DNA of 41,874 bases, taken from Fidelibacterota bacterium (GTDB lineage Bacteria > Fidelibacterota > Marinisomatia > Marinisomatales > TCS56). Positions within the stretch are counted from its first letter, which is position 1. Each line of letters opens with the position of its first letter. The DNA lies in NCBI GenBank assembly GCA_043822705.1, contig JBDRBK010000099.1:1-41874 (forward strand), given 5' to 3'. Under the pieces are notes generated by a model. The model worked only from the letters and a program-made list of their open reading frames with translations, had not been told where the DNA came from and searched no databases. The position numbers were made by a program, and so were the translations under genes. This document shows positions 10,326 to 40,251 of the stretch, in pieces.

Positions 10326-10329
10326 CACG

Positions 10330-20020: not shown

Positions 20021-20112
20021 ATACTAATTGGCAACAAATCGTGAATTCGCAGTGGGCAGGGTTTAATCTGCTGCTGCAAACCCAACTATTATAGGACAAT
20101 GGGAGTTAATGA

Positions 20113-20976
20113 ATGAGTATCGATAGAAGAAATTTCATTAAGGCATTGGGTGTTACTGGTACCAGTTTGATCGGAGCCCGGTCACTGAACGCCAAGACAG
20201 TGAAACCATCGGTCGAAATGAAAGGCATACTGATTGACACAACTCTATGTGAGGGTTGCCAGTCATGTGAATATGCCTGTGCTGAAGCAAATAACCTTCC
20301 CGAGCCGGGGGATTACCCTGAAGCCGGTGTAAATCGTAATTTGACTACTGAACAATTGACCGTGGTTAACTGTTATGATACATCACGAGGTGAAATATAT
20401 GTAAAAAAGCAGTGTTTCCATTGTAATCAACCAGCCTGCGATGCTGCCTGTTTGACCAAGGCCATGAACAAGACTGATGATGGTCCGGTCGTCTGGCGGG
20501 AAGAAAAATGCATGGGTTGTCGCTACTGTATGATATCCTGTCCGTTTGAAATCCCGAAATTTGAATACGACAGTCCTGTCCCCAGCATAAAAAAATGCAG
20601 CATGTGCTGGGCTCGCCAGCAGGAGGGCGAACTTCCCGCTTGTGTCGAAAACTGTCCTAATGAAGCAATCCTGTTTGGGACCAGGCGGGAATTATTGGCA
20701 GAAGCCCGGCGCAGAATCAGTATTAACCCGGATCAGTACTACGATCATATCTATGGTGAAGAAGAGGCTGGTGGAACGGGAATCTTGTATCTGTCGGCGG
20801 TCTCCTTTGATGAACTGGGATTCAATACCGGAATTCAAAAGGAATCCTATCCCAAGCTGACCAAGGGTTTCCTGTACAGCGTACCGTCCATTTTTGTTCT
20901 ATGGCCGATGATGCTGCTGGGATTATACAAATCGACTAATGGAGAGCAAACTGATAATCAGGGGGAAGAGTTATGA
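20113..20976 (+). CDS. Tat-exported 4x[4Fe-4S] ferredoxin subunit (HybA/HmcB/NrfC-like) with C-terminal TM
   Basis: SIDRRNFIK Tat motif; CEGCQSCEYAC, CFHCNQPACDAAC, CMGCRYCMISCP and CSMC...PACVENCP. Confidence 0.92.
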   Translation: MSIDRRNFIKALGVTGTSLIGARSLNAKTVKPSVEMKGILIDTTLCEGCQSCEYACAEANNLPEPGDYPEAGVNRNLTTEQLTVVNCYDTSRGEIYVKKQCFHCNQPACDAACLTKAMNKTDDGPVVWREEKCMGCRYCMISCPFEIPKFEYDSPVPSIKKCSMCWARQQEGELPACVENCPNEAILFGTRRELLAEARRRISINPDQYYDHIYGEEEAGGTGILYLSAVSFDELGFNTGIQKESYPKLTKGFLYSVPSIFVLWPMMLLGLYKSTNGEQTDNQGEEL

Positions 20977-22214
20977 ACCATTCCGATAGCATTACCGCAG
21001 ACGGTGTGCGATCACAAAGTTTAGGCCGCTTTCTGCTTAACGAATTAAAGCCGAAAGGGGAAATATTTACACCATTTAATCTGATTTCGGTCCCGGTGAT
21101 TATTCTGGGATTGATCATCATCTTCATCCGGTTCTGGAAGGGTTTGGGAGCGGTAACCAATTTATCGCAAACCGTCCCCTGGGGCCTGTGGATTGGCTTT
21201 GATGTGGTTACCGGAGTGGCTTTTGCCGGCGGAGCCTACGTATTAACTTTTATGGTTTATGTACTAAATATTAAAAAATACGAGCCAATAGTGCGGGTCA
21301 CGGTATTAAATGGCTTCCTGGCCTACCTGTTTTATGCGGGAGCCTTACTATTGGATCTGGGACGCCCATGGAATGTAATAAATCCGATCATAGGTAATTC
21401 ATTCGGTACCAGCAGTGTACTGTTTCTGGTAGCCTGGCATTTCATGCTCTATATGTTTGCCACCTTGATAGAATTCTCACCGGCCATCGCCGAATGGCTG
21501 GGGATGGAACGGATCCGGCGAATCCTTAAAAGCCTGACTGTTGGCGCTGTTATCTTCGGCATTACCCTATCCACTTTGCACCAGTCCGGCTTGGGGGCCC
21601 CCTATCTGATGGCCAAGGATAAGATTCATCCACTATGGTACACGGAATTCATCCCGATCCTGTTTTTCGTATCCAGCATATTTGCCGGACTATCGATGGT
21701 CATCTTCGAAGGTTCAATTACCTACCGGGTATTTTCCCACCAGGTTTCCAAAGATGATCATCGACATCACAATGCACTGTTATTCGGACTTGCCAAAGTC
21801 TGTGCCGGAGCAATGTTCGTTTATCTGTTTCTGAAACTATTGATTCTGGCACATGAACAGCAGTGGTCCCAGCTTTCGACTGGTTTCGGGAACTGGTACC
21901 TGCTGGAAATAATTGGTTTCGTGTTGTTGCCAATGATCCTGTTTATCAGCAGTATTAAGCAACAAAATCTGATCCTTGTAAAAATCGCCTCAGTACTGAC
22001 ACTGGTGGGAATCATCCTTAACCGCTTAAATGTGACCGTAATCGGTTTTCATTGGGATGCGGCTGTACGGTATGTTCCTACCTGGATGGAAATAGTGGTG
22101 ACCTTGGCGATAATATTCATCGAAATCTGGGTTTTTCGCTGGATTGTCAACCGCATGCCTGTTTTGAATCATGCTATTCCGGCAACCAGAGCAGTTAAAA
22201 TATCAACTGATTAA
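20973..22214 (+). CDS. NrfD/PsrC-family integral membrane quinone-interacting subunit (HybB/HmcC-like)
   Basis: TNLSQTVPWGLWIGFDV, LDLGRPW, LSTLHQSGLG and HPLWY; about 10 TM helices. Confidence 0.92.
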   Translation: MNHSDSITADGVRSQSLGRFLLNELKPKGEIFTPFNLISVPVIILGLIIIFIRFWKGLGAVTNLSQTVPWGLWIGFDVVTGVAFAGGAYVLTFMVYVLNIKKYEPIVRVTVLNGFLAYLFYAGALLLDLGRPWNVINPIIGNSFGTSSVLFLVAWHFMLYMFATLIEFSPAIAEWLGMERIRRILKSLTVGAVIFGITLSTLHQSGLGAPYLMAKDKIHPLWYTEFIPILFFVSSIFAGLSMVIFEGSITYRVFSHQVSKDDHRHHNALLFGLAKVCAGAMFVYLFLKLLILAHEQQWSQLSTGFGNWYLLEIIGFVLLPMILFISSIKQQNLILVKIASVLTLVGIILNRLNVTVIGFHWDAAVRYVPTWMEIVVTLAIIFIEIWVFRWIVNRMPVLNHAIPATRAVKISTD

Positions 22215-22224
22215 GGGTATAAAA

Positions 22225-22953
22225 ATGGAAAATTTCGTTCATACCAATATTTTTGCCACCAAAGGAATCGAATATTTAATCGTAATCGGGTTTCTGCTGC
22301 TGGTTATTCCTTTCTGGCGCTACCTAAATTCACCAGTCAGACTTTCCCCGGTGCTTGGTTTTTCCACAATTCAGGCTGCAGTGAAACGGATCACAGGCAG
22401 TATTCCCGAGGGTGTCTTCCTGGATCCGACCCATTCCTGGGCTTTTCTGGAATCATCTGGTATGGCCCGGGTCGGGGTTGATACATTCTTGTTGTCGGCC
22501 ACCGGACCGGTGAATTATCGTGAATTAAGAAATCCCGGTGATAGTATCAGTCGGGGGGATGTGATCAGCCTGCTGGAGCAGGATGGGAAACAGCTGAAAA
22601 TTTACTCTCCTATCTCCGGTGTCGTCGGGCAGCGTAACCGTAAATTGTCCAGATCATTTGAATCGAATGAGAATTTTTATTCTCAAGGCTGGCTCTACAT
22701 GATTAAACCGGATAACTGGAAACATGAGGTCGGCAAACTATTGTTTGCAAAGAAAGCCGAAGAGTGGATTAAATCAGAATTTGACCGCTTGAAGGATTTC
22801 TTTGCTTTCTCGACCAGTAAATACGGTTATAATCCGGAATTGATAGTACTCCAGGACGGTGGTGCCCTGGTGGATCAGGCGCTGGAACAGATGCCCGCGG
22901 ATATCTGGGCTGAATTTCAGACTGAATTCATTGATGCCAACAAGACTGAGTGA
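22225..22953 (+). CDS. Second membrane-anchored GcvH-like protein lacking the lipoyl lysine
   Basis: IFATKGIEYLIVIGFLLL TM, THSWA, ARVGVD, YSPISGVV, YSQGWLY and LQDGG. Start moved to ATG 22225. Confidence 0.82.
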   Translation: MENFVHTNIFATKGIEYLIVIGFLLLVIPFWRYLNSPVRLSPVLGFSTIQAAVKRITGSIPEGVFLDPTHSWAFLESSGMARVGVDTFLLSATGPVNYRELRNPGDSISRGDVISLLEQDGKQLKIYSPISGVVGQRNRKLSRSFESNENFYSQGWLYMIKPDNWKHEVGKLLFAKKAEEWIKSEFDRLKDFFAFSTSKYGYNPELIVLQDGGALVDQALEQMPADIWAEFQTEFIDANKTE

Positions 22954-22982
22954 TAACCAGCTGATCTTTATCAGGTAGAATA

Positions 22983-23741
22983 GTGAAAGCGAAAAATCTA
23001 AAGTGTATCTGGATGGAGGCCGGTGTTGTGGACTACCAATTATGCCGGTTGAATTTTGAATGCGAGACCTGTGATATCCATTCCAGAGTTACCAAACCCG
23101 CTATAGCAGTAGGGGTTGAGGAGTCGCGATCACAGAGATTGATTAAAATTAATTTTAAGTCACCGGCGACAGATTCATTTGTCGCCGGTGTGCAATATTA
23201 TCCGAATCATGTCTGGATTAAACGTGTCAGTCGGAATCGGGTGCTCACTGGATTGGACGATTTATTCTTTAGCCTGTGGAACGATATCAGCCGGATAATT
23301 ACCAAGGATGTTAATGCACTGCTGACAGCTAATAGCAGTTTTGCCTGGCTGACTACAGCCGATGGATTAGTGAACCTGAAACTTCCTTTCAGTGGAAAAG
23401 TGATTGCCATAAATCCACTCCTGTCCGAAGATGAAAAAAACAATCTGGAAATAATCAGGGAACTTCCGTTAGAACAACTCTGGTTACTGAAAATGGAGCC
23501 GGTGGAAGGCGTGTTAAATCAGAATACCTGGTTGACCAAACAACAGTATATCAAACAATTGATTGATGACACCAGGTTGATTCATGCCACAATTTCTAAT
23601 GATTACCAGGCCCGATCCATTCCTCCACCGGCGATGATTGAAACCCTGCAGGCTTACCAGCGAAAAACCATTACCCTGACGAGGCCGGCGCTCAAGCACC
23701 TGGTTGATAAATTATCACGCGGCACCCATCAATTTCATTAG
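22983..23741 (+). CDS. Soluble GcvH-like protein with N-terminal Cys cluster
   Basis: CIWMEAGVVDYQLCRLNFECETC (CX12CX5CX2C), then YYPNHVWI, TGLDD and LPFSGKVIAINP. Confidence 0.75.
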   Translation: MKAKNLKCIWMEAGVVDYQLCRLNFECETCDIHSRVTKPAIAVGVEESRSQRLIKINFKSPATDSFVAGVQYYPNHVWIKRVSRNRVLTGLDDLFFSLWNDISRIITKDVNALLTANSSFAWLTTADGLVNLKLPFSGKVIAINPLLSEDEKNNLEIIRELPLEQLWLLKMEPVEGVLNQNTWLTKQQYIKQLIDDTRLIHATISNDYQARSIPPPAMIETLQAYQRKTITLTRPALKHLVDKLSRGTHQFH

Positions 23742-23807
23742 CCGGGGAGTTGTTTTAAGACGGCTAATATATATGTAAATTTGGGCGGAGTTGATTAAAT
23801 ATTACTA

Positions 23808-25439
23808 ATGAAACCGGAACAGATTAGCACAAGGTCCTCGATTTATCGGCGTATAATCCTTTCCTTGCTATCCATTTCCCTGGTTTTCTTCAGTCTTCTG
23901 GCCTATGTCGTTTTCAGTGTAAACCGCAACCAGTCCGAAAAAATCATCCGGCAGTGCGGTAATCGGGTATCTTTTATAATCAACCGCGCCCTGCATAAAT
24001 CCATGTTGATCAATGACAATACCGAACTTCGAGAAATCATTGTCGAGTTAACAAAGTTGTCGGGTTTGTTGCAGATTGATATTTACGACCAGCAAGGTAA
24101 TCTTAAACATGCCACAGGTCAATTGTCAGGACTTGAATCGGAGCAGAACATCGCTGAAAAAATAGAGCAGATCCATCATCAAATCGATGCCGAATCTTAT
24201 TCTCCTGAACAGTTTTATACTATATCCCGGATTGGCAATATCGGTCGGATTCTCAAATTGTCCACCCCGATTCTGAATGAACCGAATTGCACTAATACGG
24301 CCTGTCATATTCATAGTGGTGATGATCCTATTCTGGGATTATTGCAGATAAAACTATCGCTTTCAGAGATCGATAAGACCAGGGCATCTTCGGAAATATA
24401 TTATTTTGCTTTGGTTTCAGTATTCATTCTTGCCAGCATAATAATCATGGTAACATTTACCGAGCGCACTATTCACCGTCCCATGGCCCATATTGTGCGG
24501 GCCAGTAATGAAGTAGCCAAAGGGAATCTGGATATCCGTATACCGGTGCAGGATTTTAAGGATGCCGATGTATCGCATGTGGGCACGGCTTTCAATAATA
24601 TGCTGGATGAATTGGGTCAGGCCAACAAAAAACTGCGACGCTGGTCCAAGGACCTGGAAGAGACAGTCAGAATAAAAACCGAAGAAATTAAACGGACACA
24701 GAATGAATTAATCCGGATTGAACGCATGGCCTCTCTGGGCAAACTGTCGTCGTCGGTGGCGCACGAGATCAATAATCCCCTGTCAGGTGTTTTAACGTAT
24801 TCCAAGCTGGTTGCTCGCCTGCTGAAAAAAGATCCGGTTGATCCTGAGGATATGCAGAATATTTTCGGTTATTTGGAGATGATCGAATCGGAAACCAAGC
24901 GCTGTGGTAATATCGTCAAGGGACTGTTGGATTTTTCACGCCAGGAACCGTCCCGTCATGAAATTGTACCACTGAACAGTATTCTGGTGGAAACACAGAC
25001 CTTAATGGAACATTCCTTCAAAGTGGCCCAGGTAGATTTTGAAACTGATTTTTCCGCTATCGCCGACCTGATCCAGTGTAATCCAAACCAGATCAAGCAG
25101 ATATGCATTGCCGTCCTGGTTAATGCCATCGAAGCAATTACCAGAGAAGGCCGGGTGACTTTCACATCTGGCAATAATGATGATTTATCGGAAGTAAATA
25201 TTACGATTACTGATAATGGTTCAGGAATCCGATCTGAGGATAAGGATCACATCTTCGAACCATTTTTTACCAGGAAAAAGGATGGCGCCGGTTCGGGACT
25301 CGGGTTGGCAGTTACTTACGGCATCGTTCAACGGCATAAAGGTCGTATCGAGGTGGAATCAGAATTAACCAAAGGTACAAAATTTGTAATAACGTTGCCG
25401 GTTTACACTAAAACCAAGGATATTTCCAATGCGGGATAA
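23808..25439 (+). CDS. Membrane sensor histidine kinase (NtrB-like, HAMP) with periplasmic CX4CH motif
   Basis: Two TMs; NEPNCTNTACHIH; VAHEINNPL, DNGSGI, FEPFFTRK and GSGLGL. Confidence 0.93.
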   Translation: MKPEQISTRSSIYRRIILSLLSISLVFFSLLAYVVFSVNRNQSEKIIRQCGNRVSFIINRALHKSMLINDNTELREIIVELTKLSGLLQIDIYDQQGNLKHATGQLSGLESEQNIAEKIEQIHHQIDAESYSPEQFYTISRIGNIGRILKLSTPILNEPNCTNTACHIHSGDDPILGLLQIKLSLSEIDKTRASSEIYYFALVSVFILASIIIMVTFTERTIHRPMAHIVRASNEVAKGNLDIRIPVQDFKDADVSHVGTAFNNMLDELGQANKKLRRWSKDLEETVRIKTEEIKRTQNELIRIERMASLGKLSSSVAHEINNPLSGVLTYSKLVARLLKKDPVDPEDMQNIFGYLEMIESETKRCGNIVKGLLDFSRQEPSRHEIVPLNSILVETQTLMEHSFKVAQVDFETDFSAIADLIQCNPNQIKQICIAVLVNAIEAITREGRVTFTSGNNDDLSEVNITITDNGSGIRSEDKDHIFEPFFTRKKDGAGSGLGLAVTYGIVQRHKGRIEVESELTKGTKFVITLPVYTKTKDISNAG

Positions 25440-26766
25440 ACTTTCCATTCTTATTGTCGATGATGAACTCTCGGTCCGGGATTCATTGAGCAACTGGTTT
25501 GCCGCCGATGGATATGATGTCAGCAATGCGGGCAATGCTGTTGAAGCGCTCCAGAAACTGGAGTATAAGGAATTCCAAATTATTCTGATTGATATAAAAA
25601 TGCCGGGGATGGATGGTCTTGAATTACACCGTCGCATCAAGGCCACCAATAATAAAGCAATTGTGATTATCATGACCGCCTTCGCCTCAGTTGACTCGGC
25701 AGTAGAGGCACTGAAAGACGGTGCCTACGATTATATCTGTAAACCATTCGACCCGGATCAACTCTCACAGATAATTCACAAGGCATCTGAAATTGTGGTA
25801 ACTGAATCCGGGACTAAAATTACCGAAGAACAACCACGGGAGTTGGAAAATGTTGAAAACATAGTCGGCAACAGCCCGGCCATGATGGAAGTATTTGAAC
25901 AGGTGAAAGTGCTTTCCGGAACAGATTCGACGGTCATCATAACCGGGCAGAGCGGCACCGGTAAGGAACTGATCGCCCATGCTATCCATATTAATTCCAA
26001 TCGCCGTTATTTTCCCATGATTATCGTTCACTGCGGTGCCGTCACCGAAACCTTGCTGGAAAGCGAGTTGTTTGGTCATGAGCGGGGTGCTTTTACCGGG
26101 GCCAGCTATCACCGTAAAGGTAAATTTGAAATGGCCAACGGTGGGACATTATTTTTGGATGAGATTGCAACAGTCTCATCCAAGATGCAGATTGAGCTGT
26201 TGCGGGTCCTGGAATCCAAAACCTTTACCAGGGTTGGTGGCAGTAAGGAAATCAAATCAGATTTCCGGGTAATCGCCGCCACTAATCGGGATTTAAAGAA
26301 CATGGTGAAGGAAGGTATGTTCCGGGAGGATCTGTATTATCGTTTGAACGTATTTAATATCCATGTTCCATCTTTAAAGGAACGCCGGGAAGATATCCCT
26401 GCCCTGGTCGATCATTTTATTAAAAAATATGACCAGCTAATGAATCGGTCAGTCCGGAAAATTGAGGCCGTTGCTCTGGAAGCGTTGTCCCGCTATGATT
26501 TCCCGGGTAATGTACGCGAACTGGAAAATATAATTGAGCGGGCCATTGTTTTATGTAAAGGCGATACCATCAAACAGAAAGATTTACCAATCGCCGATGA
26601 GTTAATTGATACCAGCACGGAAAGTATCACTGAAATTGAAAAAAACCATATTCAACGGATTCTGAATAAGTACGATTGGAATATTTCCAAAACTGCCAAA
26701 TCACTGGGGATTGATCGTGCTACCCTTTATAACAAGATCAATAAATATGGTATTAACAAGCCGTGA
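25429..26766 (+). CDS. Sigma54-dependent response regulator (NtrC/AtoC family)
   Basis: Receiver domain, GQSGTGKEL, ESELFGHERGAFTGA, LFLDEI, FREDLYYRL, PGNVREL and Fis-type HTH. Confidence 0.96.
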   Translation: MRDKLSILIVDDELSVRDSLSNWFAADGYDVSNAGNAVEALQKLEYKEFQIILIDIKMPGMDGLELHRRIKATNNKAIVIIMTAFASVDSAVEALKDGAYDYICKPFDPDQLSQIIHKASEIVVTESGTKITEEQPRELENVENIVGNSPAMMEVFEQVKVLSGTDSTVIITGQSGTGKELIAHAIHINSNRRYFPMIIVHCGAVTETLLESELFGHERGAFTGASYHRKGKFEMANGGTLFLDEIATVSSKMQIELLRVLESKTFTRVGGSKEIKSDFRVIAATNRDLKNMVKEGMFREDLYYRLNVFNIHVPSLKERREDIPALVDHFIKKYDQLMNRSVRKIEAVALEALSRYDFPGNVRELENIIERAIVLCKGDTIKQKDLPIADELIDTSTESITEIEKNHIQRILNKYDWNISKTAKSLGIDRATLYNKINKYGINKP

Positions 26767-26865
26767 ACCAGAATCCCAGTCAAGCAGTTGCCAGCTATTA
26801 AATTACCGACCAATTCTTGTAGTTAAAAGGTGGGAAAGATTTCATCCTGTTTGTAATCGAGTATT

Positions 26866-27393
26866 ATGGTCACTTCCGGTACAATATACTTGGTTCCCTT
26901 TTCAATCGAGATCGATCATCTGCTGCTTCAACTGCAGGATATTATTCAACAACAATTTAAATATCATACCAGAATCAAAGAGCAGCATTTCGACCTGAGC
27001 CGATATTTTAATCCGGACCGGGTACAATACTCGGCCAATGATATTTTAGCTCATCTACTGGAATTATCTGTTGAGAATAATGATAAAATCATTGGTCTAA
27101 CCGGGGTTGATATATATATCCCGGTGCTGACCTTTATATTTGGTCAAGCCTATTTGGGCGGGCGCGCTGGAGTAATATCGGATTACCGTCTCAAAAACGA
27201 ATTTTACGGAATGCCCAATGATCAAGAATTATTCGAACAACGATTGACCAAGTGTATTATCCATGAACTGGGACATATGTTCGGGATACTGCACTGTAAC
27301 AGGCTGGATTGCGTTATGCGTTCGGCAACATATGTAGAGGAAATTGATCAGAAATCGATTTATTTATGCCAGAGATGTGCACAGCAATTATGA
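26866..27393 (+). CDS. Archaemetzincin family zinc metalloprotease (M54)
   Basis: FIFGQA, HELGHMFGILHC...CVM...CQRC. Confidence 0.9.
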   Translation: MVTSGTIYLVPFSIEIDHLLLQLQDIIQQQFKYHTRIKEQHFDLSRYFNPDRVQYSANDILAHLLELSVENNDKIIGLTGVDIYIPVLTFIFGQAYLGGRAGVISDYRLKNEFYGMPNDQELFEQRLTKCIIHELGHMFGILHCNRLDCVMRSATYVEEIDQKSIYLCQRCAQQL

Positions 27394-29496: not shown

Positions 29497-31476
29497 TTAT
29501 TCCGAATGATGTCGTTCGTAATATTCTTTAGCTTGGAAGGAAACGTCTTCAATTGTTGTTATACCTTCCTCAATGGCAGCTACTTCTTCCATAATCCGTT
29601 GATAATCGACCGGGTGCTTGTGTTTGTACTCGGCAATTGTCATCCGCCCATGAAGCCAGGTCATGCTCATTGGGTATTCCTTGGGATGCAGCATCACAAA
29701 GAAGAAATGCCAGACAAGAATTGCCAAGGTCGCCAGCCATGCTTCGTACAGATGGAAGACTTCGGCAACCTTAATCATCCATAATGGTGAATACTGGGTA
29801 AAGAATACCGGGTACCAGAGAATAAATCCCGAGATAATCATTACGATTGTTCCCCAGATCAGCGCCCAGTATTCAGCTTTTTCAGTGTAATCGAACCGGT
29901 CGAACTGCGGCTCATTCTTGGTCAGGTGCATACTGTAGAGCATCAACTGATAAAAACCCTGGAAATCGCTGATTGCTGGCAATAGTGCCTTGAAAAACTG
30001 ATTGCCGCGTTTTGTTACAATAACTTCAACAAAATGCCAAATTGAAAGTGCAATCAACAGAATTGCGGCTGCCCGGTGGACTATTCCACGTACCGTTTCG
30101 GTCAAACCAATCTTCCCCAGCAAGTCTGCCCAGAATGTGTCCAGATATTTCAAGGCAAACCCAGTAATCACCAACGTAAAAAAGGATATTATTAGGATGA
30201 CATGTTGCCAGACTTGTGATTTGGTGTAGCGTTGGATGTAATCCTGGGGTTCTTCATTTTTGTACTTATGGATCAGCAGCTCTACAAATATGATAAGATT
30301 GTGCATTAACATACCACCGATCACCACTACAATCAGAAAAATATAGACGATTTTAACAAAGTATTCCACCGGTTTTTCGGCAAGAATAACGGACTGATGG
30401 GTATAGGATTGCGAGAATATTTCGGTAGCTCCCGGGTGACATTCAGCACAGGTTTCACGTAAATTGGACTTATGAATTGCGGAACCGGGATCGCTGACGG
30501 GCAGAATGTAATGGGCCAGATGACAATCATAGCAGGTAGCAGCATCTGCGTCGCCTTTTATTACGGCTAATCCATGATAACTATCCTGATAACTTGAAAC
30601 TTTACCTGTCATCAAGCCATACTTGCTGATCATCCGCTCATCATTATGACAGCGGGCGCAGGTCTTTTCGGCGGCACTCCGTTTTGAAACCGGTGAACTG
30701 GGATCATGAATATCCACAATTTCATGTTCACCGTGACAATCGATACAACTGGGAGATTCTCTTTCACCCCGGGCCAGTGCCTCCCAGTGCACGCTCTTGG
30801 TATATAACGCATAAATGGTATCATGGCATACGCCACAGGTAGTAGATATATTTGAATGGCTTATGGTCGAAGTGGGATCGGTATTGGTTTTGATGTCATG
30901 CACGCCATGACAATCATTGCATGTTGCAGCCAATAGATTCCCATTTTCACCCAATTGTTTCGCATGATAACTTTTTGAAAACAGTTCTACCGGGTGCAGG
31001 TCAGGGATATTGTACTTTTCGACTAGTTCGGGTTGGGCATGGCATTGACCGCAGGTATTCGCCAGCTTCGGGGGATAGGTCAGAGATTCAGAATCTGTGG
31101 CCGGCAAGATATTGTGGCTACCATGACAGCTGTAACAGTATGCCGCATCCATGTCAGAATCTTCCCGCCAGATCGATATGCCATGAGCGCTGGTATTATA
31201 CTCTTCACTGGCTTCCTCATGACAGGCTCCACAGGATTCACATACATCCTGGCAATCAGTTTCATAACCGTCTGAATGATCGATTCCAAGTTTCTGAATT
31301 ACCTGATGGCAATCCAGACATTCCAATTCCGCATGGATTGATTCCTCAATGGATACTTCACCATGGCATTCCTGGCAAGATTCACTGCTAAAATCCTCAT
31401 CATAATCCTGAGCCCAGAGGAAACTTGCAGTAAGAATTACCATGATTAATTGCACTGGACGACAAGTCGTAACCAT
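29497..31476 (-). CDS. CbcL-like multiheme cytochrome c (11 CxxCH) fused to an FdnI-type cytochrome b membrane domain
   Basis: Signal peptide; 11 CxxCH counted; TM domain with His in QH, VHR, WHF and FHLYEA; FDRFDYTEKAEYWALIWG. Confidence 0.92.
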   Translation of the reverse strand: MVTTCRPVQLIMVILTASFLWAQDYDEDFSSESCQECHGEVSIEESIHAELECLDCHQVIQKLGIDHSDGYETDCQDVCESCGACHEEASEEYNTSAHGISIWREDSDMDAAYCYSCHGSHNILPATDSESLTYPPKLANTCGQCHAQPELVEKYNIPDLHPVELFSKSYHAKQLGENGNLLAATCNDCHGVHDIKTNTDPTSTISHSNISTTCGVCHDTIYALYTKSVHWEALARGERESPSCIDCHGEHEIVDIHDPSSPVSKRSAAEKTCARCHNDERMISKYGLMTGKVSSYQDSYHGLAVIKGDADAATCYDCHLAHYILPVSDPGSAIHKSNLRETCAECHPGATEIFSQSYTHQSVILAEKPVEYFVKIVYIFLIVVVIGGMLMHNLIIFVELLIHKYKNEEPQDYIQRYTKSQVWQHVILIISFFTLVITGFALKYLDTFWADLLGKIGLTETVRGIVHRAAAILLIALSIWHFVEVIVTKRGNQFFKALLPAISDFQGFYQLMLYSMHLTKNEPQFDRFDYTEKAEYWALIWGTIVMIISGFILWYPVFFTQYSPLWMIKVAEVFHLYEAWLATLAILVWHFFFVMLHPKEYPMSMTWLHGRMTIAEYKHKHPVDYQRIMEEVAAIEEGITTIEDVSFQAKEYYERHHSE

Positions 31477-31733
31477 AATTACACCCGCTTATTGAAATTA
31501 ATATGACTGTTAGAACCGTTCACTCAAAGTAAAACCAATCCAGATGTTCAAAATGAATCATTGTAAAGGGTCATATTTAATAATTGTAATTATGACTTGC
31601 TTCATCGATGATTATTAATGATCAATTACTCAATATTTCCTGAAAGCAACGATACTGCTATCGGCAAAACCGGGATCAGTTTATCAAGTTTTAAATGACT
31701 AATGTGACTCACTCATATCTCTGAAGTAGGAAT

Positions 31734-34244
31734 TTAGGAAAATGTGCCGGCCAATATCAACACCAACAGGGCGAGTCCAATCAACAGGAAACTGTAGGCC
31801 GCAATCCGGAATATCAACCGTTTCCAGCCAGGTAAGGGATTGGTAAGCATAGCCTGGTACTGGACCACTGTCAATGCTTCTTTCTGCAGGGGCCGTTCCT
31901 CTTCGAAACGTTCTTCGGTGAGATGGCCGGAAAAGATTGCCTCGTCCATGGGAAAAGTACCGGGGCGCAGGTGTGTGTTGAAGAAATGCACCGTGAAGAT
32001 AAAACCTGTTGCCAGCAGTGCTTCTTCGGAATGAATGATGTGGGCCGCATTGATCATCCAACCGGGGAACCAGCGTGAGAAAATCTGCGGGAACCACAAC
32101 GTCAATCCCGAGGCACCGATAGCGAACATGCCCCAGAACACGGCGAAATAATCGAATTTCTCCCAATAGGTCCAGCGTCCAAATTTGGGTTCCGCTTTCC
32201 TGAGGCCGATGAAATACAGGACATGATTATAAAAATCCTTGAAATCCTGCCAGTTCGGCACCAGGCTGTCCGGCCCCCAAAACACGCCCTTCTTATTTTT
32301 CACAAACGCCGTTTTGAACATGATTCCCAGGTGGAATACAAAAACCAGCAGCATCAGCCCGGCGCCGACACGATGGGCGATGGCGGCGGTACCGAAACCG
32401 ATCACGTTGTGAACAAACCAGTTCGCCAGTATGGAATGACTGTATTTCAGCGGTAGACCGGTCATCGCCAGCGTCAGGAAGCTTAAAACCATCCCCACAT
32501 GCAGGGCGCGCTGCTCCGGTGTAAAGCGCCGGACCCGGTGATTGGACTTGGGCGGTTTGGCGATCGGGCCGTGCATAATCCGTTTTATCAGTAGCCGAAT
32601 CAGCCACAGTATTGTGTGCCCGCCAAAAATCACCAGAACGCTGGTCAGCAGAACCACCATCGCTTTGTGGATGAAATTCAGGGCCGGATTTTCTTCCGCC
32701 ATCATCGGTGTGTAATGTTGCAGGTACTGGACAAAATTCTCATTTACATCGGTATGGCAACGGGAGCAGGTGGCCACAATATGCGATTTGTGGATCGTGG
32801 ACTGGGGATGATTACTGGGTAGAATGGAATGATTATCGTGGCAGGAAATACAGGTGGCGAATTTTTCACCCTGGTAACCCAACTGGTACATTTGCCCGTG
32901 ATAAGAAGTGTTATAGCCTTCCAGCACATTGGGGTTGAGCTGGAACTTCATGGTCATATCACGGTCGGAATGACAGCGGGCGCAAAGCACAACGATCGAC
33001 TCCCCCATGAATCGCTCATTAGCCTTCTGGATTCGCTGCTCGTCATGGCAGGTGATACAGGTCGGCGCTTCCAGATGTCCTTTCTGATAGGAGATGTAGT
33101 GACTCGATAATTGGTATTGCTGCTGCTCTTTAGGGTGGCAGTCGGCGCAGGATTTTTCCAGGGCGCGATCGGCGGGGTGGTTGGGTGCCAGATAATGATA
33201 GGTATGGCAGTTACCGCAATTGGATGGTTCCCCGGAGGCCACTTTATTGAGTTCGTCGCGATGAATCCGGCCATGGGCCTCTTCCTGCTCGACGATCAGC
33301 GTGGACTGATGACAGCGCAGGCAGACCTGGTCCAGTTTGATATCAAACACGCTGGAAGGCGCGGAGCCAACCATTTCGGTTTCGTGGCCGGTATGGCAGA
33401 CGACACAGGTTTCCAGCCGCGGATCGCTGTTTTCCTTGGGCCGGTGGATGGAAGCTTCGTATCCCAGGTGACAGTTGCTGCAGACCATGTCCAGGCGGGC
33501 AACCGATACTTCGCTGGCGGGATTGCGTGGCGACAAAACCCGGTGACGGGCATGGCAATCGGAGCAGACCGGTGCCTTCAGATTGCCGGCCAGCACCTGT
33601 TTATAATGTCCGCTGAGATCGTAATTCCGAACATTTTCGGCATGGCACTCCCGGCAGGATTCGGTCAGGTGAATTTTCCATTCACCAGGTGTGTAATCGG
33701 CACGTTCCTGTTTATTATGAGGCGAGTGACAGGATACACAGGTTACATCAGAGGTCTCCGTCTGCTGATCCCAGTGGGCGGAATGGAAGAAATCGTCCAG
33801 AACATCTTGGTGACAGACACCGCAGGCCTGGCGCGGTTGTCCCTGCCAACTGACTTTATGCTTGCCGTGGCAATCCGAACAGGTCGGGATCGAGGTATAG
33901 CCTTTTTCCTGTAGCGGCCGGAAGAAACCTTCGATGAATTCCGTCTGGGCGTCCTCGTGGCAACTGCCGCAATCAGGCAATTCCACCAGCGGATCATGCG
34001 GGAAATCCTCGACACCTTCCAAAGCGGTGTGGCAATCAATACAATTAAAACCTTCGTGGGGCGTGCCCTCCAGGTCGGCTTCGGTCACATACAGCGATAA
34101 TTCCAACCCGCGACGCCGGACCGCAAGGTCTTGGTCGTCATGGCACATCGTACAAGTTTCATTGTCCTGCCCAAGTAAAATCAGGGGAATCCACAGCAGG
34201 ATTGAAAATTTCAACGGATTCCCCCTCCGTATAAATTCTATCAT
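31734..34244 (-). CDS. CbcL-like multiheme cytochrome c (17 CxxCH) fused to a cytochrome b membrane domain
   Basis: 17 CxxCH counted; FGRWTYWEKFDYFAVFWG and IIHSEEALLATGFIFTVHFF. Confidence 0.92.
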   Translation of the reverse strand: MIEFIRRGNPLKFSILLWIPLILLGQDNETCTMCHDDQDLAVRRRGLELSLYVTEADLEGTPHEGFNCIDCHTALEGVEDFPHDPLVELPDCGSCHEDAQTEFIEGFFRPLQEKGYTSIPTCSDCHGKHKVSWQGQPRQACGVCHQDVLDDFFHSAHWDQQTETSDVTCVSCHSPHNKQERADYTPGEWKIHLTESCRECHAENVRNYDLSGHYKQVLAGNLKAPVCSDCHARHRVLSPRNPASEVSVARLDMVCSNCHLGYEASIHRPKENSDPRLETCVVCHTGHETEMVGSAPSSVFDIKLDQVCLRCHQSTLIVEQEEAHGRIHRDELNKVASGEPSNCGNCHTYHYLAPNHPADRALEKSCADCHPKEQQQYQLSSHYISYQKGHLEAPTCITCHDEQRIQKANERFMGESIVVLCARCHSDRDMTMKFQLNPNVLEGYNTSYHGQMYQLGYQGEKFATCISCHDNHSILPSNHPQSTIHKSHIVATCSRCHTDVNENFVQYLQHYTPMMAEENPALNFIHKAMVVLLTSVLVIFGGHTILWLIRLLIKRIMHGPIAKPPKSNHRVRRFTPEQRALHVGMVLSFLTLAMTGLPLKYSHSILANWFVHNVIGFGTAAIAHRVGAGLMLLVFVFHLGIMFKTAFVKNKKGVFWGPDSLVPNWQDFKDFYNHVLYFIGLRKAEPKFGRWTYWEKFDYFAVFWGMFAIGASGLTLWFPQIFSRWFPGWMINAAHIIHSEEALLATGFIFTVHFFNTHLRPGTFPMDEAIFSGHLTEERFEEERPLQKEALTVVQYQAMLTNPLPGWKRLIFRIAAYSFLLIGLALLVLILAGTFS

Positions 34245-34251
34245 AGGCGCT

Positions 34252-34845
34252 CTATTTTTTCAGTTCAGCCGGATAGGGATGGGCTATCTCCTTTACACGA
34301 TCGGCAAATTTGAACGGTTTGAAAGTCGGGCTTTTCTGGTTGTGGCAGGTGACGCACAGCGCTTCGTTCGGTTCAATCAGACCAACCGTCTTACCGTCGA
34401 CGGTTCCGGCAAAGATATCCTTCATGACTTTGCTGGATTTGTAGGCACTGCCCGGTCCATGGCAGGCTTCGCAACTGACCGATTGCAGACCGGCCATTGT
34501 CTTGACTTCCTTGGTGGGTTTGCCCTTATCGTCGACTGCTTCCCAGAATTTGGCATCTTTTACGGCGTAGCCGCCAGCCCCGAATCCGGTGGTATGGCAA
34601 GCCAGACATTCGGCAGCTTCCCAAGCCGGACCGGCAATTCCTTTATCCTTGGCAATCTTGGCGGACGCTTCATTCTTCAGTGTTTCGAATGCCTTGGCAT
34701 GCACATCGGCTTCCCATTTGGCAAACTGGGCGCCTTTGGCTTCGCTCTTATGGCACATTTTACAGCCATCGACTCCGACGTATTCAAAGCTCTGAGCAAA
34801 GACCAGACCAGTGGCAGCCAAAATCAGTATCATTCGTTTAACCAT
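34252..34845 (-). CDS. Periplasmic tetraheme cytochrome c (c554-like family)
   Basis: Signal peptide; YVGVDGCKMCH, CLACH, VSCEACHGPGS and CVTCH. Confidence 0.9.
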   Translation of the reverse strand: MVKRMILILAATGLVFAQSFEYVGVDGCKMCHKSEAKGAQFAKWEADVHAKAFETLKNEASAKIAKDKGIAGPAWEAAECLACHTTGFGAGGYAVKDAKFWEAVDDKGKPTKEVKTMAGLQSVSCEACHGPGSAYKSSKVMKDIFAGTVDGKTVGLIEPNEALCVTCHNQKSPTFKPFKFADRVKEIAHPYPAELKK

Positions 34846-34939
34846 TATTTCCCTCCACGATATGGTTTATTGGTTAATCCAATATTAATAATTTTCAATG
34901 ACAAAGCGAACAATTTATGTACTGCTGCTGCAACCGTTT

Positions 34940-35770
34940 TCAACCGCCGTGGCAGCGCCTACAGGTATTATCGCTTGCTGGTTGATGACAAACCAGGCAT
35001 ATGTCCGGTTCCTGTTCCGCCCGTTCGCCATGCAGCCCGCCCCGCGTGGGCGATGCCCAGTCGGGCAGGTTATGATCCACCGGCATGACCAGATTACTCC
35101 GGTGGCAGGACAGGCAGTCCTTTATCGGGTGGTGGCAGGTGCTGCAATCATTCAGCGCGGCATACGCTTCCAGTCCGTGGGCGAGCATGAAAGCCGCTGG
35201 ATGGTTGGCCGGTTCGACGTTCTGAACCAGATGGCAGGCGTCACAGGTGGCCTGCTGGTGACAGGTGCTGCAACTGCTCTTGGTCTGGTGCATCACTTCG
35301 ATCCCGTGCAGCCAGGACCAATCAGCCGCATGTGATTTCGGCGCGGCTGAGGAATGACAGGATTGACAATCCGACCGGGTCCATAATCTGGCGGGACCGC
35401 CCCCCGATTCTTCTTCAACGTAGGCATGACAGGTAGTGCATTCCTGACCTGAACCGATGTGATAAGCGTGTGAAAAGTCCAGCCCGCTGAGTCGCTGCGA
35501 ATCAGTGAAGGGCAACGGTTCGTCCGGATCTGAGTGACAGGCTTCGCAATCCTCGGTCGCGGTATCGCCGTCGTGGCAACCAATACAGGTATCCTTTTCC
35601 GGCAGTAACCGCGGCGGGATTGCGGTCGATTTACCCACATCGGCATGGCAATCACTGCAGGACATTTCCAAATCTTCAAGGTGCAACTGGTGCGGGAACA
35701 TGATATAATCACCGCTCCAGGCTGTTGCCAGTAAAAAGGTTGTGATAAGGAATAACCTAAAGCGCCACAT
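34940..35770 (-). CDS. Periplasmic 11-heme cytochrome c (c3/c7-like repeats)
   Basis: Signal peptide; 11 CxxCH in 276 aa; FPHQLH and FSHAYH distal-His motifs. Confidence 0.92.
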   Translation of the reverse strand: MWRFRLFLITTFLLATAWSGDYIMFPHQLHLEDLEMSCSDCHADVGKSTAIPPRLLPEKDTCIGCHDGDTATEDCEACHSDPDEPLPFTDSQRLSGLDFSHAYHIGSGQECTTCHAYVEEESGGGPARLWTRSDCQSCHSSAAPKSHAADWSWLHGIEVMHQTKSSCSTCHQQATCDACHLVQNVEPANHPAAFMLAHGLEAYAALNDCSTCHHPIKDCLSCHRSNLVMPVDHNLPDWASPTRGGLHGERAEQEPDICLVCHQPASDNTCRRCHGG

Positions 35771-36914
35771 TGATCACAACTCCTCCCCTGGTGTCATAAT
35801 TATAGTAGGGATTGCGGAGAAACCGCCCGAATATCCGGATCGCCATCAGTGGCGCCGGCTGCCACTCGGTCCAGCCATACAGTCCGATCGATTTCTGGGG
35901 CTCGATCAGATCATCATAGGTCCGGGCATTGATCGAAAAACTACCACCGGCAGTGACTACCCGGCTGACCGGTTTTCTTAATCCCGCACTAACGCCAAAC
36001 AGGGTCTGTTTATCCTGATAACCGCCGACAAAAGACAGTGAATACGGACCAACCGCCGCCGTGCTGCGGAAATAATTAATATTGGACTCGCTGAACCGGT
36101 GAACGAATTGATTCCACCAGATCAGCCGTGTACCAACTCGGGATGTCACTCCCAAGGTAACAATCGGAGCCGCAGTAATACTGCGATTGATCCAGGGATA
36201 GGGATCAGCCTGTAAATAACGTTTCTGACGAAAGCCGGCGCTGATCGTGTGTTGTCTAAAAGCTTTTGACAATCGGACGCGGGCTTGATAAGCCTTGCTG
36301 TCAGTCAAGGACCAGGCCAGGTTGGAATACAGTTTGATATCGCTTGGTAACGGCCGGGTCAGGCTGCCACCCGCGTAAGAATTGGTTTCGGCTCCATCGT
36401 TTTCGGTCCAGAAAATGACTGTCCGGTTGTTACCGAGACGGCCCTGGCTCCAAGACACCAGATACAGTTGCTTATCGACAAAAGCAGTATCGCTGAAATC
36501 GCTGACGGCTTTAAAACCACCCAATACTTCGAGGCTGCCCAGCTTGCCCAGCGAATAATTAAATTTGGCACCATCCACCCGACCGCTAATGAAACTGTTC
36601 CAAGTGGCAATTCGACCCAGTTCGAGATTGATTTTCCCGAGATCAAAACCGGCGGTCAGGTTGTAAACACGGAACGGATTGGGCAGAGAGCCGGTTTCCG
36701 AGCCGATTTCGATTTGCGATTCCAGTGATAGTCGCGAACCGAATGACTGGCGGTAGGTCAAAACTGAGCACCAGAAGGTGGCCTCATCCGCATCCAGCAT
36801 ACCTACCCGCGGATACAAGGCGGTTGTGCTGATGGAAATATCCGGTTTGACGGCTAATACTAGTCCGGATAAAATAATCAAAACAGTTATGTTTTTTTTC
36901 AGATTGGCAGTCAT
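35757..36914 (-). CDS. Putative outer-membrane beta-barrel (porin of a porin-cytochrome conduit)
   Basis: Signal peptide; alternating amphipathic strands rich in G/Y/F/W; ends GGVVINVAL; overlaps the 11-heme gene. Start placed at ATG 36914. Confidence 0.7.
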   Translation of the reverse strand: MTANLKKNITVLIILSGLVLAVKPDISISTTALYPRVGMLDADEATFWCSVLTYRQSFGSRLSLESQIEIGSETGSLPNPFRVYNLTAGFDLGKINLELGRIATWNSFISGRVDGAKFNYSLGKLGSLEVLGGFKAVSDFSDTAFVDKQLYLVSWSQGRLGNNRTVIFWTENDGAETNSYAGGSLTRPLPSDIKLYSNLAWSLTDSKAYQARVRLSKAFRQHTISAGFRQKRYLQADPYPWINRSITAAPIVTLGVTSRVGTRLIWWNQFVHRFSESNINYFRSTAAVGPYSLSFVGGYQDKQTLFGVSAGLRKPVSRVVTAGGSFSINARTYDDLIEPQKSIGLYGWTEWQPAPLMAIRIFGRFLRNPYYNYDTRGGVVINVAL

Positions 36915-36947: not shown

Positions 36948-36975
36948 GGTGGCCCAACCTTGTAGTTGGGCCACC
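36948..36975 (-). terminator. Perfect 11-bp hairpin upstream of the porin gene
   Basis: GGTGGCCCAAC-CTTGTA-GTTGGGCCACC; GTTT follows on the minus strand. Confidence 0.6.
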
Positions 36976-37084: not shown

Positions 37085-37319
37085 TTATGCACTAATAGAA
37101 CCGGCTGGCTTCATGCCAACACGACAGCAACCTGCAACAGTGGCCCCTTCCATGGTAAATTCCTGAAGGGCTACTTGATAGATATGGCAACCTTCACAGG
37201 TATACCGATCAGACGCAGTAATTTTATCTAAACCAGGATCACAACCAGCGCAAAACAGTAAAAATAAACCTGTTAACAGGCCAAATCGCCAGACAGATTT
37301 TTTCGTGAGTTTTGTTCAT
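37085..37319 (-). pseudogene. Frameshifted/truncated lipoprotein c-type cytochrome remnant
   Basis: Reading 37315 to 37085 gives TKLTKKSVWRFGLLTGLFLLFCAGCDPGLDKITASDRYTCEGCHIYQVALQEF...SISA*, with a lipobox and CEGCH. The ATG at 37319 overlaps the merR stop (ATGA) but is one base out of frame at an A4 run. Confidence 0.65.
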
Positions 37320-37771
37320 CGTTTTACCGTTAAAAACATTTCGTTCAGCTTTCCCGCTTTACAGGCAGCGCGATAAACATTGCACTCGCGGCACTCGCCC
37401 CGATTACAGACTTCGGCACTACGATTTTCGGTCAGCCAGCACACCTTTTCGCCATTCATGTAGACCGGGCAACGCTCCTGCTCTTCGCTGGTACAGGGTT
37501 TCATTTCCCAGCATGGTATCAAGGCCAGCAGCAGGCGCACACCGGCGATATTCAATCCATTCCTGGTAATCTGGATACGGAAACAGTTGATCCACTCCAG
37601 ATCCTTCTGCGAATATAGTCGGCGATTGGTGCCGGTTTTATAGGGAATGATCAGGCCTTCTCGTTCGTAGAGGCGTAATGTCTCGGGCGATACACCCAAT
37701 TTTTTGGCCGCGATGCCGATTGATATTACCGGCTCGAATGGATCGGCCTCGATCGAGATGTTCAATGACAT
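37316..37771 (-). CDS. MerR/HspR-like regulator with a Cys-rich 'two-CW' C-terminal domain
   Basis: ISIGIAAKKLGVSPETLRLYEREGLI...RRLYS; CWEMKPC...RCPVY...VCW...VC...CRECNVY. Confidence 0.88.
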   Translation of the reverse strand: MSLNISIEADPFEPVISIGIAAKKLGVSPETLRLYEREGLIIPYKTGTNRRLYSQKDLEWINCFRIQITRNGLNIAGVRLLLALIPCWEMKPCTSEEQERCPVYMNGEKVCWLTENRSAEVCNRGECRECNVYRAACKAGKLNEMFLTVKR

Positions 37772-37954: not shown

Positions 37955-38422
37955 ATGCTTTACTCAAAATCAGCCGAATATGCCATCCAGGCGATGATCT
38001 ACCTGGCGGAAAAAAATTCTCCAAGTCCGGTCATGATCAGTGAAATCGCCAAAGCCTATAAAATACCACAGCAATTTCTTGCCAAAATCGCCCAGATACT
38101 GGTGCGCCATCGGCTTCTGATCGCGGTCCGCGGTCGTAACGGCGGTGTAAATCTGGGGCGGTCCGCAGCGGATATTTACATCCATCAGGTAGTCCAGGCG
38201 GTTGATGGTCCCCCGCCCGAACATGAACAATGCGCCATCGGACTTGATTACTGCTCCGATGAACAGCCCTGTCCGCTGCACGATAAATGGTCGGTAATCC
38301 GGGAACAGATCAAGGAGATGTTAGAGTCGGAAAATCTCGAACATCTTGCCAAACAGGTGATCGAAAAACGGATTGCCATGCGCGAACTGGGCCTGGAAGA
38401 ATTGATCGGTGCCATCAAGTAA
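37955..38422 (+). CDS. Rrf2-family transcriptional regulator with Fe-S ligands
   Basis: SKSAEYAIQA, VRGRNGG and CAIGLDYCSDEQPCPLH. Confidence 0.92.
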   Translation: MLYSKSAEYAIQAMIYLAEKNSPSPVMISEIAKAYKIPQQFLAKIAQILVRHRLLIAVRGRNGGVNLGRSAADIYIHQVVQAVDGPPPEHEQCAIGLDYCSDEQPCPLHDKWSVIREQIKEMLESENLEHLAKQVIEKRIAMRELGLEELIGAIK

Positions 38423-38446
38423 TGATTAATAAAACATTAGTCGCCT

Positions 38447-38917
38447 ATGGAAACACAATTTAACATTTCAAAAATCCTGGTAACCACTGATTTTTCCAAT
38501 TATTCCCGTTCCGCCTTTCCCAAAGCAATCACCCTGGCCCGCCAATTTGATGCATCGATCCTGTTACTGCACGTCATTCAACCGGTAATAACACCTTCCG
38601 AATATACCTGGGGAATCCAGCCGATCGAGCTCCAGCATGAGCATGAACAGCATTGCGAACAAGCGCTCCAGAAGCTCATCAGCGACTATTTTCCAGACGA
38701 TTTGCAGGTTGCCGGCCGGATCGTGCACGGCATCCCGTTCAAGGAAGTCATCGAAATCAGCCGCAGTGAAAATGTGGACCTGATTATTATTGCGACCCAT
38801 GGACTGAGCGGCCTCAGCCACATTCTGTTCGGCAGCACGGCGGAAAAAATCGTCCGCAAATCAGCCTGTCCGGTCCTGGTCGTTCGCGATCCCGCCCATA
38901 AATTCGAAATGCCCTGA
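38447..38917 (+). CDS. Universal stress protein (UspA family)
   Basis: KILVTTDFS and DLIIIATHGLSGLSHILFGSTAEKIVRKSACPVLVV. Confidence 0.93.
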   Translation: METQFNISKILVTTDFSNYSRSAFPKAITLARQFDASILLLHVIQPVITPSEYTWGIQPIELQHEHEQHCEQALQKLISDYFPDDLQVAGRIVHGIPFKEVIEISRSENVDLIIIATHGLSGLSHILFGSTAEKIVRKSACPVLVVRDPAHKFEMP

Positions 38918-38927
38918 TCCTGCGCTG

Positions 38928-39335
38928 ATGCTGATTACGCGGTCATCCGAGTACGCCATCGAACTGGTGATTTATCTGGTCAACTGGGAATCGGACTCGT
39001 ATGCACCGCTGCATCAGATTGCCGAAAAAACCGACCTTTCGTTTCATTTCCTGGGGAAAATCTCACAGATTCTAGTTCGTCACAATCTGCTGAAAACGTA
39101 CCGCGGTCCCAACGGCGGTGTCGCCCTGGCGCGACCGACCAATGAAATCACCCTGTTCGATATCGTAAACGCGGTCGAAGGCGATGCCTTTCTCAACCAG
39201 TGCTTCCTGCGGCCGAATAAATGCGCCCATGAAAAACCCTGTCCGATTCACCAGGTCTGGGCCAAGGTCCGGGAAGACCTGCGTAATGTGTTCCTGACCG
39301 TAACGATTGACGAATTCAAAAATCATAATCATTAG
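38928..39335 (+). CDS. Second Rrf2-family regulator with Fe-S ligands
   Basis: TRSSEYAI, YRGPNGG and CFLRPNKCAHEKPCPIH. Confidence 0.9.
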   Translation: MLITRSSEYAIELVIYLVNWESDSYAPLHQIAEKTDLSFHFLGKISQILVRHNLLKTYRGPNGGVALARPTNEITLFDIVNAVEGDAFLNQCFLRPNKCAHEKPCPIHQVWAKVREDLRNVFLTVTIDEFKNHNH

Positions 39336-39722: not shown

Positions 39723-40168
39723 ATAGCAGCGTTTACAGTTCAACTTACAGTATCAGTTACAACCTGCTATTATTCATCATCGGGTTCTTGCGGTTTTGAA
39801 GGCCACATTAGTTTTATTTGAACCGGCAATGCTTACATACTGCCATCGTCCTGGACAATTATCATTATAGATCTTCATCACATTCTGATCTCCACCAACG
39901 ACAGGTGAAATGACTAGCGGTCAGCAGCAGGAAAATGCTCCAATTTTGAAGTTTTCCCGTGGATTATCCTGATCGAATTCCAGGTCACAGTAATTTGAAC
40001 CACCTATTTGTTCATTGCATTGGAACAGTGTTCATCTTCAGGATTCAGTACTTAAAAACCATGAAAAGAGCAGCACAGTGATAGTAGCAAGTTGAGCTTA
40101 ATTACATTGCAAAGTAAATTGCAAATCAGATCACATTGTCTCTTGTAAGCTACTTAATAACAAAAGTG

Positions 40169-40251
40169 TACCGGGGAAGGGACTCGAACCCTCACGACCA
40201 AAGATCACCAGATCCTAAGTCTGACGCGTCTACCAGTTCCGCCACCCCGGT
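40169..40251 (-). tRNA. trnL: tRNA-Leu(TAG)
   Basis: Acceptor stem ACCGGGG/CCCCGGT plus A discriminator; D-arm GGCGGAACTGGTAGACGC; anticodon arm TCAGA-CTTAGGA-TCTGG; long variable arm; GGTTCGAGTCC; CCA not encoded. Confidence 0.96.

Follow-up and report, generated by a model that had tools for sequence, protein, structure and literature searches.

A cluster of five adjoining genes on a 41,874-nt contig of a Fidelibacterota bacterium (Marinimicrobia, FCB group; contig JBDRBK010000099.1, analysed whole and here called the window) probably encodes a heme wire that would lead electrons from quinol to the outer membrane, of the porin-cytochrome (Pcc) kind and in a reduced form without the lipoprotein cytochrome of its relatives. 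The five open reading frames (ORFs) lie on the minus strand at 29497-36914 and specify, in order of transcription, a β-barrel, an 11-heme c-type cytochrome, a tetraheme cytochrome, and two fusions of 17 and 11 c-hemes with a cytochrome b domain, giving CxxCH counts of 0, 11, 4, 17 and 11 (43 in all), while the remaining 34 of the 38 window ORFs examined have no such motif. The first two genes overlap by 14 nt, with subsequent spacings of 94, 7 and 257 nt. An initial annotation made from the DNA letters had listed the same gene order and 43 motifs, which the ORF coordinates and motif counts reproduce, and its placing of the host in the FCB lineage agrees with the closest named homologs of the window proteins, which are from Candidatus Marinimicrobia, i.e. 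Fidelibacterota. The window's own genome assembly (G000) is 93% complete and encodes the heme-c assembly family PF01578; labels beginning with L denote loci fetched from other genomes.

The barrel, its cytochromes and their relatives

Using AlphaFold2 with an alignment of 46 homologs we modelled the barrel as 22 strands following a signal helix, with no plug (predicted local distance difference test score (pLDDT) 91.7; predicted template modelling score (pTM) 0.80), as expected from the β-barrel first proposed for this gene. If empty, a plugless barrel of this kind would form an open pore. Its best fold matches are 22-strand TonB-receptor barrels (Z 20.3, root-mean-square deviation (rmsd) 4.4, 320 aligned), and MtrB ranks 15th (Z 16.6, rmsd 4.7, 320 aligned, 7% identity). 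Neither the barrel nor any of the 46 homologs matches a Pfam or NCBIfam family, ext-operon NCBIfam models included, so family-based screens would miss this barrel family, and its profile found nothing meaningful among PDB sequences. Foldseek with the barrel model returned generic barrels only; no solved Pcc porin was among the listed structures, so this excludes nothing. An Atlas search placed unnamed look-alike clusters in Zixibacteria, Myxococcota and Ignavibacteriota. Alignment of the window's barrel family with Ignavibacteria-type barrels using hhalign covered 362–369 columns with probabilities of 98.0% and 99.2%, against 0.2% for a reversed control, and by this profile comparison the barrel and the Ignavibacteria barrels are homologous over their full length.

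The barrel is present in 63 of 301 genomes of the phylum (~21%, own genome included), a few of these holding fragments only. Of the 62 loci in other genomes we retrieved 40: the top 20 by score, taken almost in sequence, and 20 more scattered through the ranking; two of them, L058 and L059, are nearly identical. The gene directly after the barrel encodes a 10–12-heme cytochrome in all 40, which upholds the porin-cytochrome logic that the initial annotation had read in the locus. With further loci included, 48 held the 11-heme gene, one of them without room downstream, and in 45 of the resulting 47 the next multiheme gene encodes a lipobox-bearing cytochrome of 4–25 hemes (41 lipoboxes called by a permissive pattern, four by eye). 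In L033 and L127 the 11-heme gene is followed directly by the tetraheme gene, as in the window. A contig from a related strain (~93% alike) spans 34030-35694 without an insert at the 11-heme/tetraheme junction, so loss of the lipoprotein gene at this point is not an assembly error. No homolog of the outer lipoprotein cytochrome was found in the window or in the 93% complete G000, and with only a decayed stub upstream, the locus encodes no predicted surface cytochrome. The window is a reduced copy of the cluster, the least complete example examined, and the initial view of a route complete in one locus is not supported, since the lipoprotein cytochrome of 45/47 relatives is missing. At L069:1-4819, two multiheme cytochromes with type IX secretion system C-terminal sorting domains lie directly upstream of the barrel and may be an alternative surface head.

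The 11-heme cytochrome is likely to be the barrel's partner and to sit within it. Its 11 CxxCH motifs and 10 further His are invariant across 40 sequences; the N-terminal half is c7-like and the C-terminal half has paired CxxCH repeats. The top PDB profile match is GSU1996 (3ov0, E 1.5e-28), others being ActA and c7, and there was no MtrA-named entry among 27 such matches and no match to TIGR03508, consistent with the earlier remark that this protein is unlike MtrA. Foldseek with the 11-heme model gave nothing at E ≤ 0.001. Co-folding with the barrel, a check that the initial annotation had proposed, gave a weak positive, with a score of 0.52 where the highest of three controls scored 0.00, contact agreement of at least 48% and partner pLDDT of at least 69. 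Of 157 solved complexes, 116 reach the mark used for such scores, as do 2 of 215 mismatched pairs; because scores of 0.60 or less at this mark come from only 18 solved complexes and from both mismatches, the complex argues weakly for the pairing.

The tetraheme protein is likely a periplasmic shuttle. It matches PF13435 (c554) and PDB 1bvb (E 1.9e-8), as its earlier description as c554-like implied, and misses the curated NF043010 cut-off for Nitrosomonas CycA (48 bits vs 400). Both fusions end in a cytochrome b561/FdnI-like domain with five hydrophobic segments and matches to PF01292 and TIGR01583, PF01292 being above cut-off for the 11-heme fusion and not for the 17-heme fusion. Candidate heme-b ligands are H582, H624, H638, H738 and H753 in the 17-heme fusion, and H425, H467, H481, H575 and H590 in the 11-heme fusion, these five His being kept in 45–48 of 48 membrane domains. 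Members of the CbcL/MtrH/MtoC family have 3–23 c motifs in an N-terminal region, followed by a HydC/FdnI-like b domain of 4–6 helices with conserved His, within 416–1034 aa, and are often encoded beside porin-cytochrome genes (PMC6295460, PMC13591261). With 17 and 11 motifs, five segments and five conserved His, the window fusions fall within this description, in keeping with the CbcL-type assignment originally made, and quinol oxidase or quinone reductase activity is predicted for them. They differ from CbcL, which has nine hemes, in being tandem paralogs (29% identical) of 17 and 11 hemes.

Across the phylum the 17-heme fusion is 61–80% identical. Its orthologs (matches at ~59% identity or more, nine weaker ones dropped) occur in 40 genomes, 37 of which also have the barrel against a base rate of 63/301, a comparison in which related genomes do not count as independent. 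The 11-heme fusion is found in two clades and its gene begins 3–28 nt after the 17-heme gene in eight relatives. It is therefore part of the cluster, even though in the window a gap precedes it and its GC content at third codon positions (GC3) is low.

In their survey of Pcc systems, Shi et al. (2014, PMC4245776) describe porins of 18–22 strands, "much smaller than MtrB", with partners of 5–14 hemes and an outer-membrane lipoprotein cytochrome "in most cases"; they also report two-gene clusters without an outer cytochrome and c+b proteins beside pcc genes. The 22 strands modelled for the window barrel and the 11 CxxCH motifs of the adjacent periplasmic cytochrome lie within these ranges, and the outer lipoprotein cytochrome is absent. 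In Ignavibacterium album, the cluster IALB_1840-1837 pairs a porin with a 14-heme cytochrome of 400 aa, preceded by a periplasmic cytochrome and followed by an outer cytochrome whose motifs are atypical (PMC4245776). In loci from Ignavibacteria-type genomes, a barrel lies upstream of an 11–14-heme homolog in 25/26 and a multiheme gene lies downstream in 24/26. The order in L072, namely tetraheme (43% identical to that of the window), barrel, 14-heme cytochrome and a lipoprotein with atypical motifs (34% over 111 aa), is the published one. Of six loci from a genome-contig scan with a single protein as query, L074–L076 hold unrelated Aquicultor/actinobacterial multihemes; L073 gave no significant barrel match. 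Homologs of 400 aa with 14 hemes exist, one cluster of them being named Ignavibacteriae. A figure of 100 out of 121 Ignavibacteria-class genomes, of which the top 25 loci were inspected, was rejected as a cluster count, as many of the matches were short ORFs (~190–250 aa) and probably ActA-like.

From the barrel alignment and the L072 gene order, the window cluster is likely of the same kind as the Ignavibacteria-type Pcc cluster, with its proteins likely orthologous to the IALB proteins. It differs from the I. album cluster in its shorter cytochrome, a barrel identity of ~14%, two c+b fusions in the locus and the lost lipoprotein. The small porin, which the initial annotation took as the mark of a distinct pathway, is not distinctive, since published Pcc porins are of this size, c+b fusions beside pcc genes are in print, and homologs of each of the four soluble or outer-membrane components occur in Ignavibacteria-type clusters.

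The upstream stub and a candidate selenocytochrome

Many relatives have, upstream, a merR gene, a lipoprotein ORF with CxxCH joined in frame by one TGA codon to an 8–10-heme ORF, and then a rhodanese lipoprotein gene. A single in-frame TGA was present in 19/19 loci examined (for example L032:14235-15698 on the minus strand and L031:2418-3866 on the plus strand, with 17 more), in the context GG-TGA-GG or AT-TGA-GD. The product would be a lipoprotein of 9–11 hemes with the TGA near its N-terminus; the gene is present in 66/301 genomes, 35 of which also have the barrel, and it matched no NCBIfam family, including NF040886, and nothing in the PDB. We infer that selenocysteine (Sec) is inserted at the TGA, which would make this cytochrome a candidate selenoprotein. 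The window's own genome has SelA and tRNA-Sec, and suggestive selenocysteine insertion sequence (SECIS) folds were seen in four loci, with no control. Some homologs are stop-free at this position, such as L043. A pattern search for Cys homologs gave 29 with U and one with neither among 30 matches, some genomes counted twice, and missed the stop-free homologs L118–L123 and L130; as no Cys homolog was recovered, Sec/Cys pairing gives no confirmation of Sec. The protein is not among the cytochrome rows considered from the 2026 selenoproteome table (PMC13188914), and we found no report of such a selenoprotein in this phylum in the open-access literature.

The relatives' module shares a rhodanese lipoprotein, a porin and a multiheme protein with in-frame UGA with ExtHIJKL and MccSep (PMC13510729, PMC5877670). 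However, MccSep is described as periplasmic with five hemes (PMC13510729), whereas the relatives' protein has more hemes, a lipobox and its TGA near the N-terminus (GG-U-GG), and lacks NF040886. In other families of the phylum (L121–L126, L128, L130), the TGA cytochrome heads a different cluster without a match to this barrel family, which continues with an 8-heme protein, a 6-heme c+b protein, 3-heme and 18-heme proteins, a heme-free protein of 520–625 aa and then another multiheme protein.

What remains of this gene in the window is a stub that matches the start of the L032 gene at 65% identity across 40 aa. It has no in-frame ATG, GTG or TTG and its TGA region is eroded, and DNA alignment indicates that the rest of the gene and the rhodanese gene were deleted; a hairpin upstream of the barrel gene marks the deletion's far boundary. 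The absence of a start codon and the position of the deletion edge are based on the assembly and one contig, whose first 845 letters do not appear among those placed on the window; a frameshift and an ACG replacing the start codon explain the stub equally well. A full copy was not found elsewhere in G000 (93% complete).

Proposed electron route and competing explanations

The Geobacter conduits ExtABCD, ExtEFG and OmabcB have a three-part layout, with a dodecaheme partner, barrels of 18–21 segments and an outer lipoprotein as the replaceable part; quinol oxidases are not described as belonging to those clusters (PMC6148476), and the window lacks the third part. The three-part conduit of Jimenez Otero (2018) includes a redox lipoprotein in the cluster, and in the window none of the four cytochromes has a lipobox and only the decayed stub lies upstream, which lowers the case for a complete pathway in one locus and not that for porin-cytochrome working. 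Shewanella MtrCAB (PDB 6R2Q) shares the logic of barrel plus multiheme protein, but has 26 strands rather than 22, and the window's cytochrome is of c7 type. The 26–28-strand barrel and decaheme MtrA/DmsE cytochrome of MtrAB, PioAB and MtoAB are likewise not seen, the window protein having 11 hemes and no family match, and PF11854 was not found in G000. That the system is not Mtr, as the initial annotation held, is thus corroborated by the lack of any MtrB or MtrA family match. Further context is given in PMC12133095, PMC12977616, PMC7399161 and bioRxiv 10.64898/2026.05.27.727921.

In the route that we favour, the b-heme domains of the fusions would oxidise quinol in the manner of CbcL, and their 17 and 11 c-hemes would conduct the electrons to the periplasm, perhaps at two different potentials. 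The c554-like tetraheme would then carry electrons on to the 11-heme protein, entering at its c7-like half, and the remaining half would run through the plugless barrel. Contact with the outer acceptor would be made either at the tip of this cytochrome or through a partner whose gene lies elsewhere. An OmcE homolog on contig C59 of the same genome (7tfs, E 1.1e-23) may supply the surface cytochrome. The region containing this gene, G000:C59:6238-17468 (L104), encodes the OmcE-like tetraheme protein, cytochromes of 13, 12 and 5 hemes (the last with a lipobox) and a heme-free protein of 679 aa, and has a near-duplicate start on contig C172.

Several observations weigh against a quinol-to-surface wire. 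Published two-gene pcc cytochromes have 12–14 hemes in 338–344 aa (PMC4245776), compared with 11 hemes in ~257 mature residues here, and the model of the 11-heme protein is mediocre (pLDDT 69). None of the four window cytochromes has a lipobox, and L033 and L127 keep the upstream lipoprotein selenocytochrome, whereas the window has lost both lipoprotein genes. The gene for the 11-heme fusion stands behind a 257-nt gap and has a GC3 of 0.46 compared with 0.56–0.63 in the other four. Furthermore, I. album, itself a carrier of a pcc cluster, is reported not to use Fe(III) or Mn(IV) oxides (PMC4245776), and the direction of electron flow is not readable from the CbcL/MtrH/MtoC family (PMC6295460).

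The loss of both lipoprotein cytochromes fits decay, in which the barrel and 11-heme pair would no longer reach the outside and the c+b proteins and tetraheme would feed periplasmic reductases only. Two separate losses in the locus point this way, as does L132, the nearest relative with the window's flanking kinase, regulator and zincin genes, which keeps the lipoprotein gene, and no homolog of the lost genes was found in G000. We nevertheless regard decay as unlikely, because all five ORFs are intact with conserved residues and the loss between the 11-heme and tetraheme genes is also seen in the related strain; among the rows listed (40 of 684), third codon positions account for 26 of the 36 differences in the 17-heme gene. 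The conduit could also run inwards, like MtoAB with MtoC, taking electrons from Fe(II), reduced humics or partner cells for the c+b proteins to reduce quinone. An outer cytochrome is typically missing from the clusters of Fe(II) oxidisers (PMC4245776) and the CbcL/MtrH/MtoC family is found in oxidisers and reducers alike (PMC6295460), but a variable lipoprotein cytochrome in 45/47 relatives is the pattern of the reductive Geobacter conduits (PMC6148476) and there is no MtrA/MtoA or MtrB family match, making this direction quite improbable.

We give still less credence to a solute channel, a role put forward for Geobacter ExtI, in which polysulfide or selenite would pass through the barrel to cytochromes in the periplasm and there would be no heme wire. 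The barrel model is indeed without a plug, and the relatives' rhodanese lipoprotein and candidate selenocytochrome directly upstream echo extHIJKL (PMC13510729). Nonetheless, the barrel is accompanied by the 11-heme gene in 40/40 loci and by the selenocytochrome in only 35/63 genomes, there is no NCBIfam match, ext-operon models included, and the complex score is weakly positive. As for what the full Marinimicrobia cluster does, surface sulfur respiration is a speculative and rather doubtful proposal: two quinol oxidases and a 22-strand wire would serve a lipoprotein selenoenzyme and a rhodanese reducing polysulfide or elemental sulfur, and the window lineage would have swapped this head for an OmcE-type nanowire.

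Genomic surroundings and wider meaning

The MerR-family gene upstream of the stub is likely the regulator of the cluster, judging from its position in relatives; a promoter scan was uninformative (22 sites vs 16.0 ± 4.3 in shuffles). Beside the cluster, a divergent Rrf2-Usp-Rrf2 trio (37955-39335, plus strand) is kept within the window's own family, and a tRNA-Leu gene (40168-40251) lies near the window end. Convergent on the conduit, 19328-27393 (plus strand) holds a GcvH-like gene, HybA/HmcB-like Fe-S and NrfD/HmcC-like genes, two more GcvH-like genes, a kinase, a sigma-54 regulator and an archaemetzincin; several relatives have HybA/HybB-like genes inside the conduit cluster. Further away, 9255-14278 (plus strand) encodes HEAT-repeat, GT2 glycosyltransferase and TPR-YaiO barrel proteins behind a hybrid kinase and GGDEF set, and resembles an exopolysaccharide locus. 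Elsewhere in the genome, G000:C5:4268-14164 (L105) is a second multiheme cluster (17, 23 and 8 hemes), possibly another conduit, flanked by proteins of 521 and 425 aa without Pfam families.

Table 1. Features of the conduit locus and its upstream region, with window coordinates
Feature	Position	Strand	Description
Outer-membrane β-barrel	35757..36914	-	385 aa, signal peptide, no CxxCH; predicted 22 strands, no plug domain
11-heme c cytochrome	34940..35770	-	276 aa, 11 CxxCH, no lipobox; 14-nt overlap with barrel gene
Spacer, 94 nt	34846..34939		Site of lipoprotein multiheme cytochrome gene (4–25 hemes) in 45/47 relative loci; none here
Tetraheme c554-like cytochrome, soluble	34252..34845	-	197 aa, 4 CxxCH; PF13435
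17-heme c + cytochrome b fusion, CbcL/MtrH/MtoC type	31734..34244	-	836 aa, 17 CxxCH
11-heme c + cytochrome b fusion	29497..31476	-	659 aa, 11 CxxCH; PF01292 above cut-off
Decayed 5' stub of lipoprotein multiheme candidate selenocytochrome gene	37085..37306	-	Lipobox, one CEGCH (44th CxxCH)
Hairpin, 11-bp stem, upstream of barrel gene	36948..36975	-	From sequence; resembles inverted repeat 3' of rhodanese gene in L032 and L033
MerR-family regulator, Cys-rich C-terminus	37316..37771	-	PF13411; heads cluster in most relatives (synteny)

We found no report of porin-cytochrome systems in this phylum in the open-access literature. If the proposed route is correct, trans-outer-membrane electron transfer would be encoded in ~21% of sampled Marinimicrobia genomes (63/301), and the cluster is a natural experiment in which a fixed core is combined with swappable outer heads. 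Being the least complete, the window copy is not the one to study first. Of greatest interest is the lipoprotein cytochrome that the relatives encode with an in-frame TGA; this candidate selenoenzyme can be tested directly and hints at sulfur respiration. Were the sulfur-respiration proposal true, about one-fifth of the genomes sampled from a major marine "dark matter" phylum would have an unrecognised outer-membrane respiratory route, together with a new selenoprotein family.

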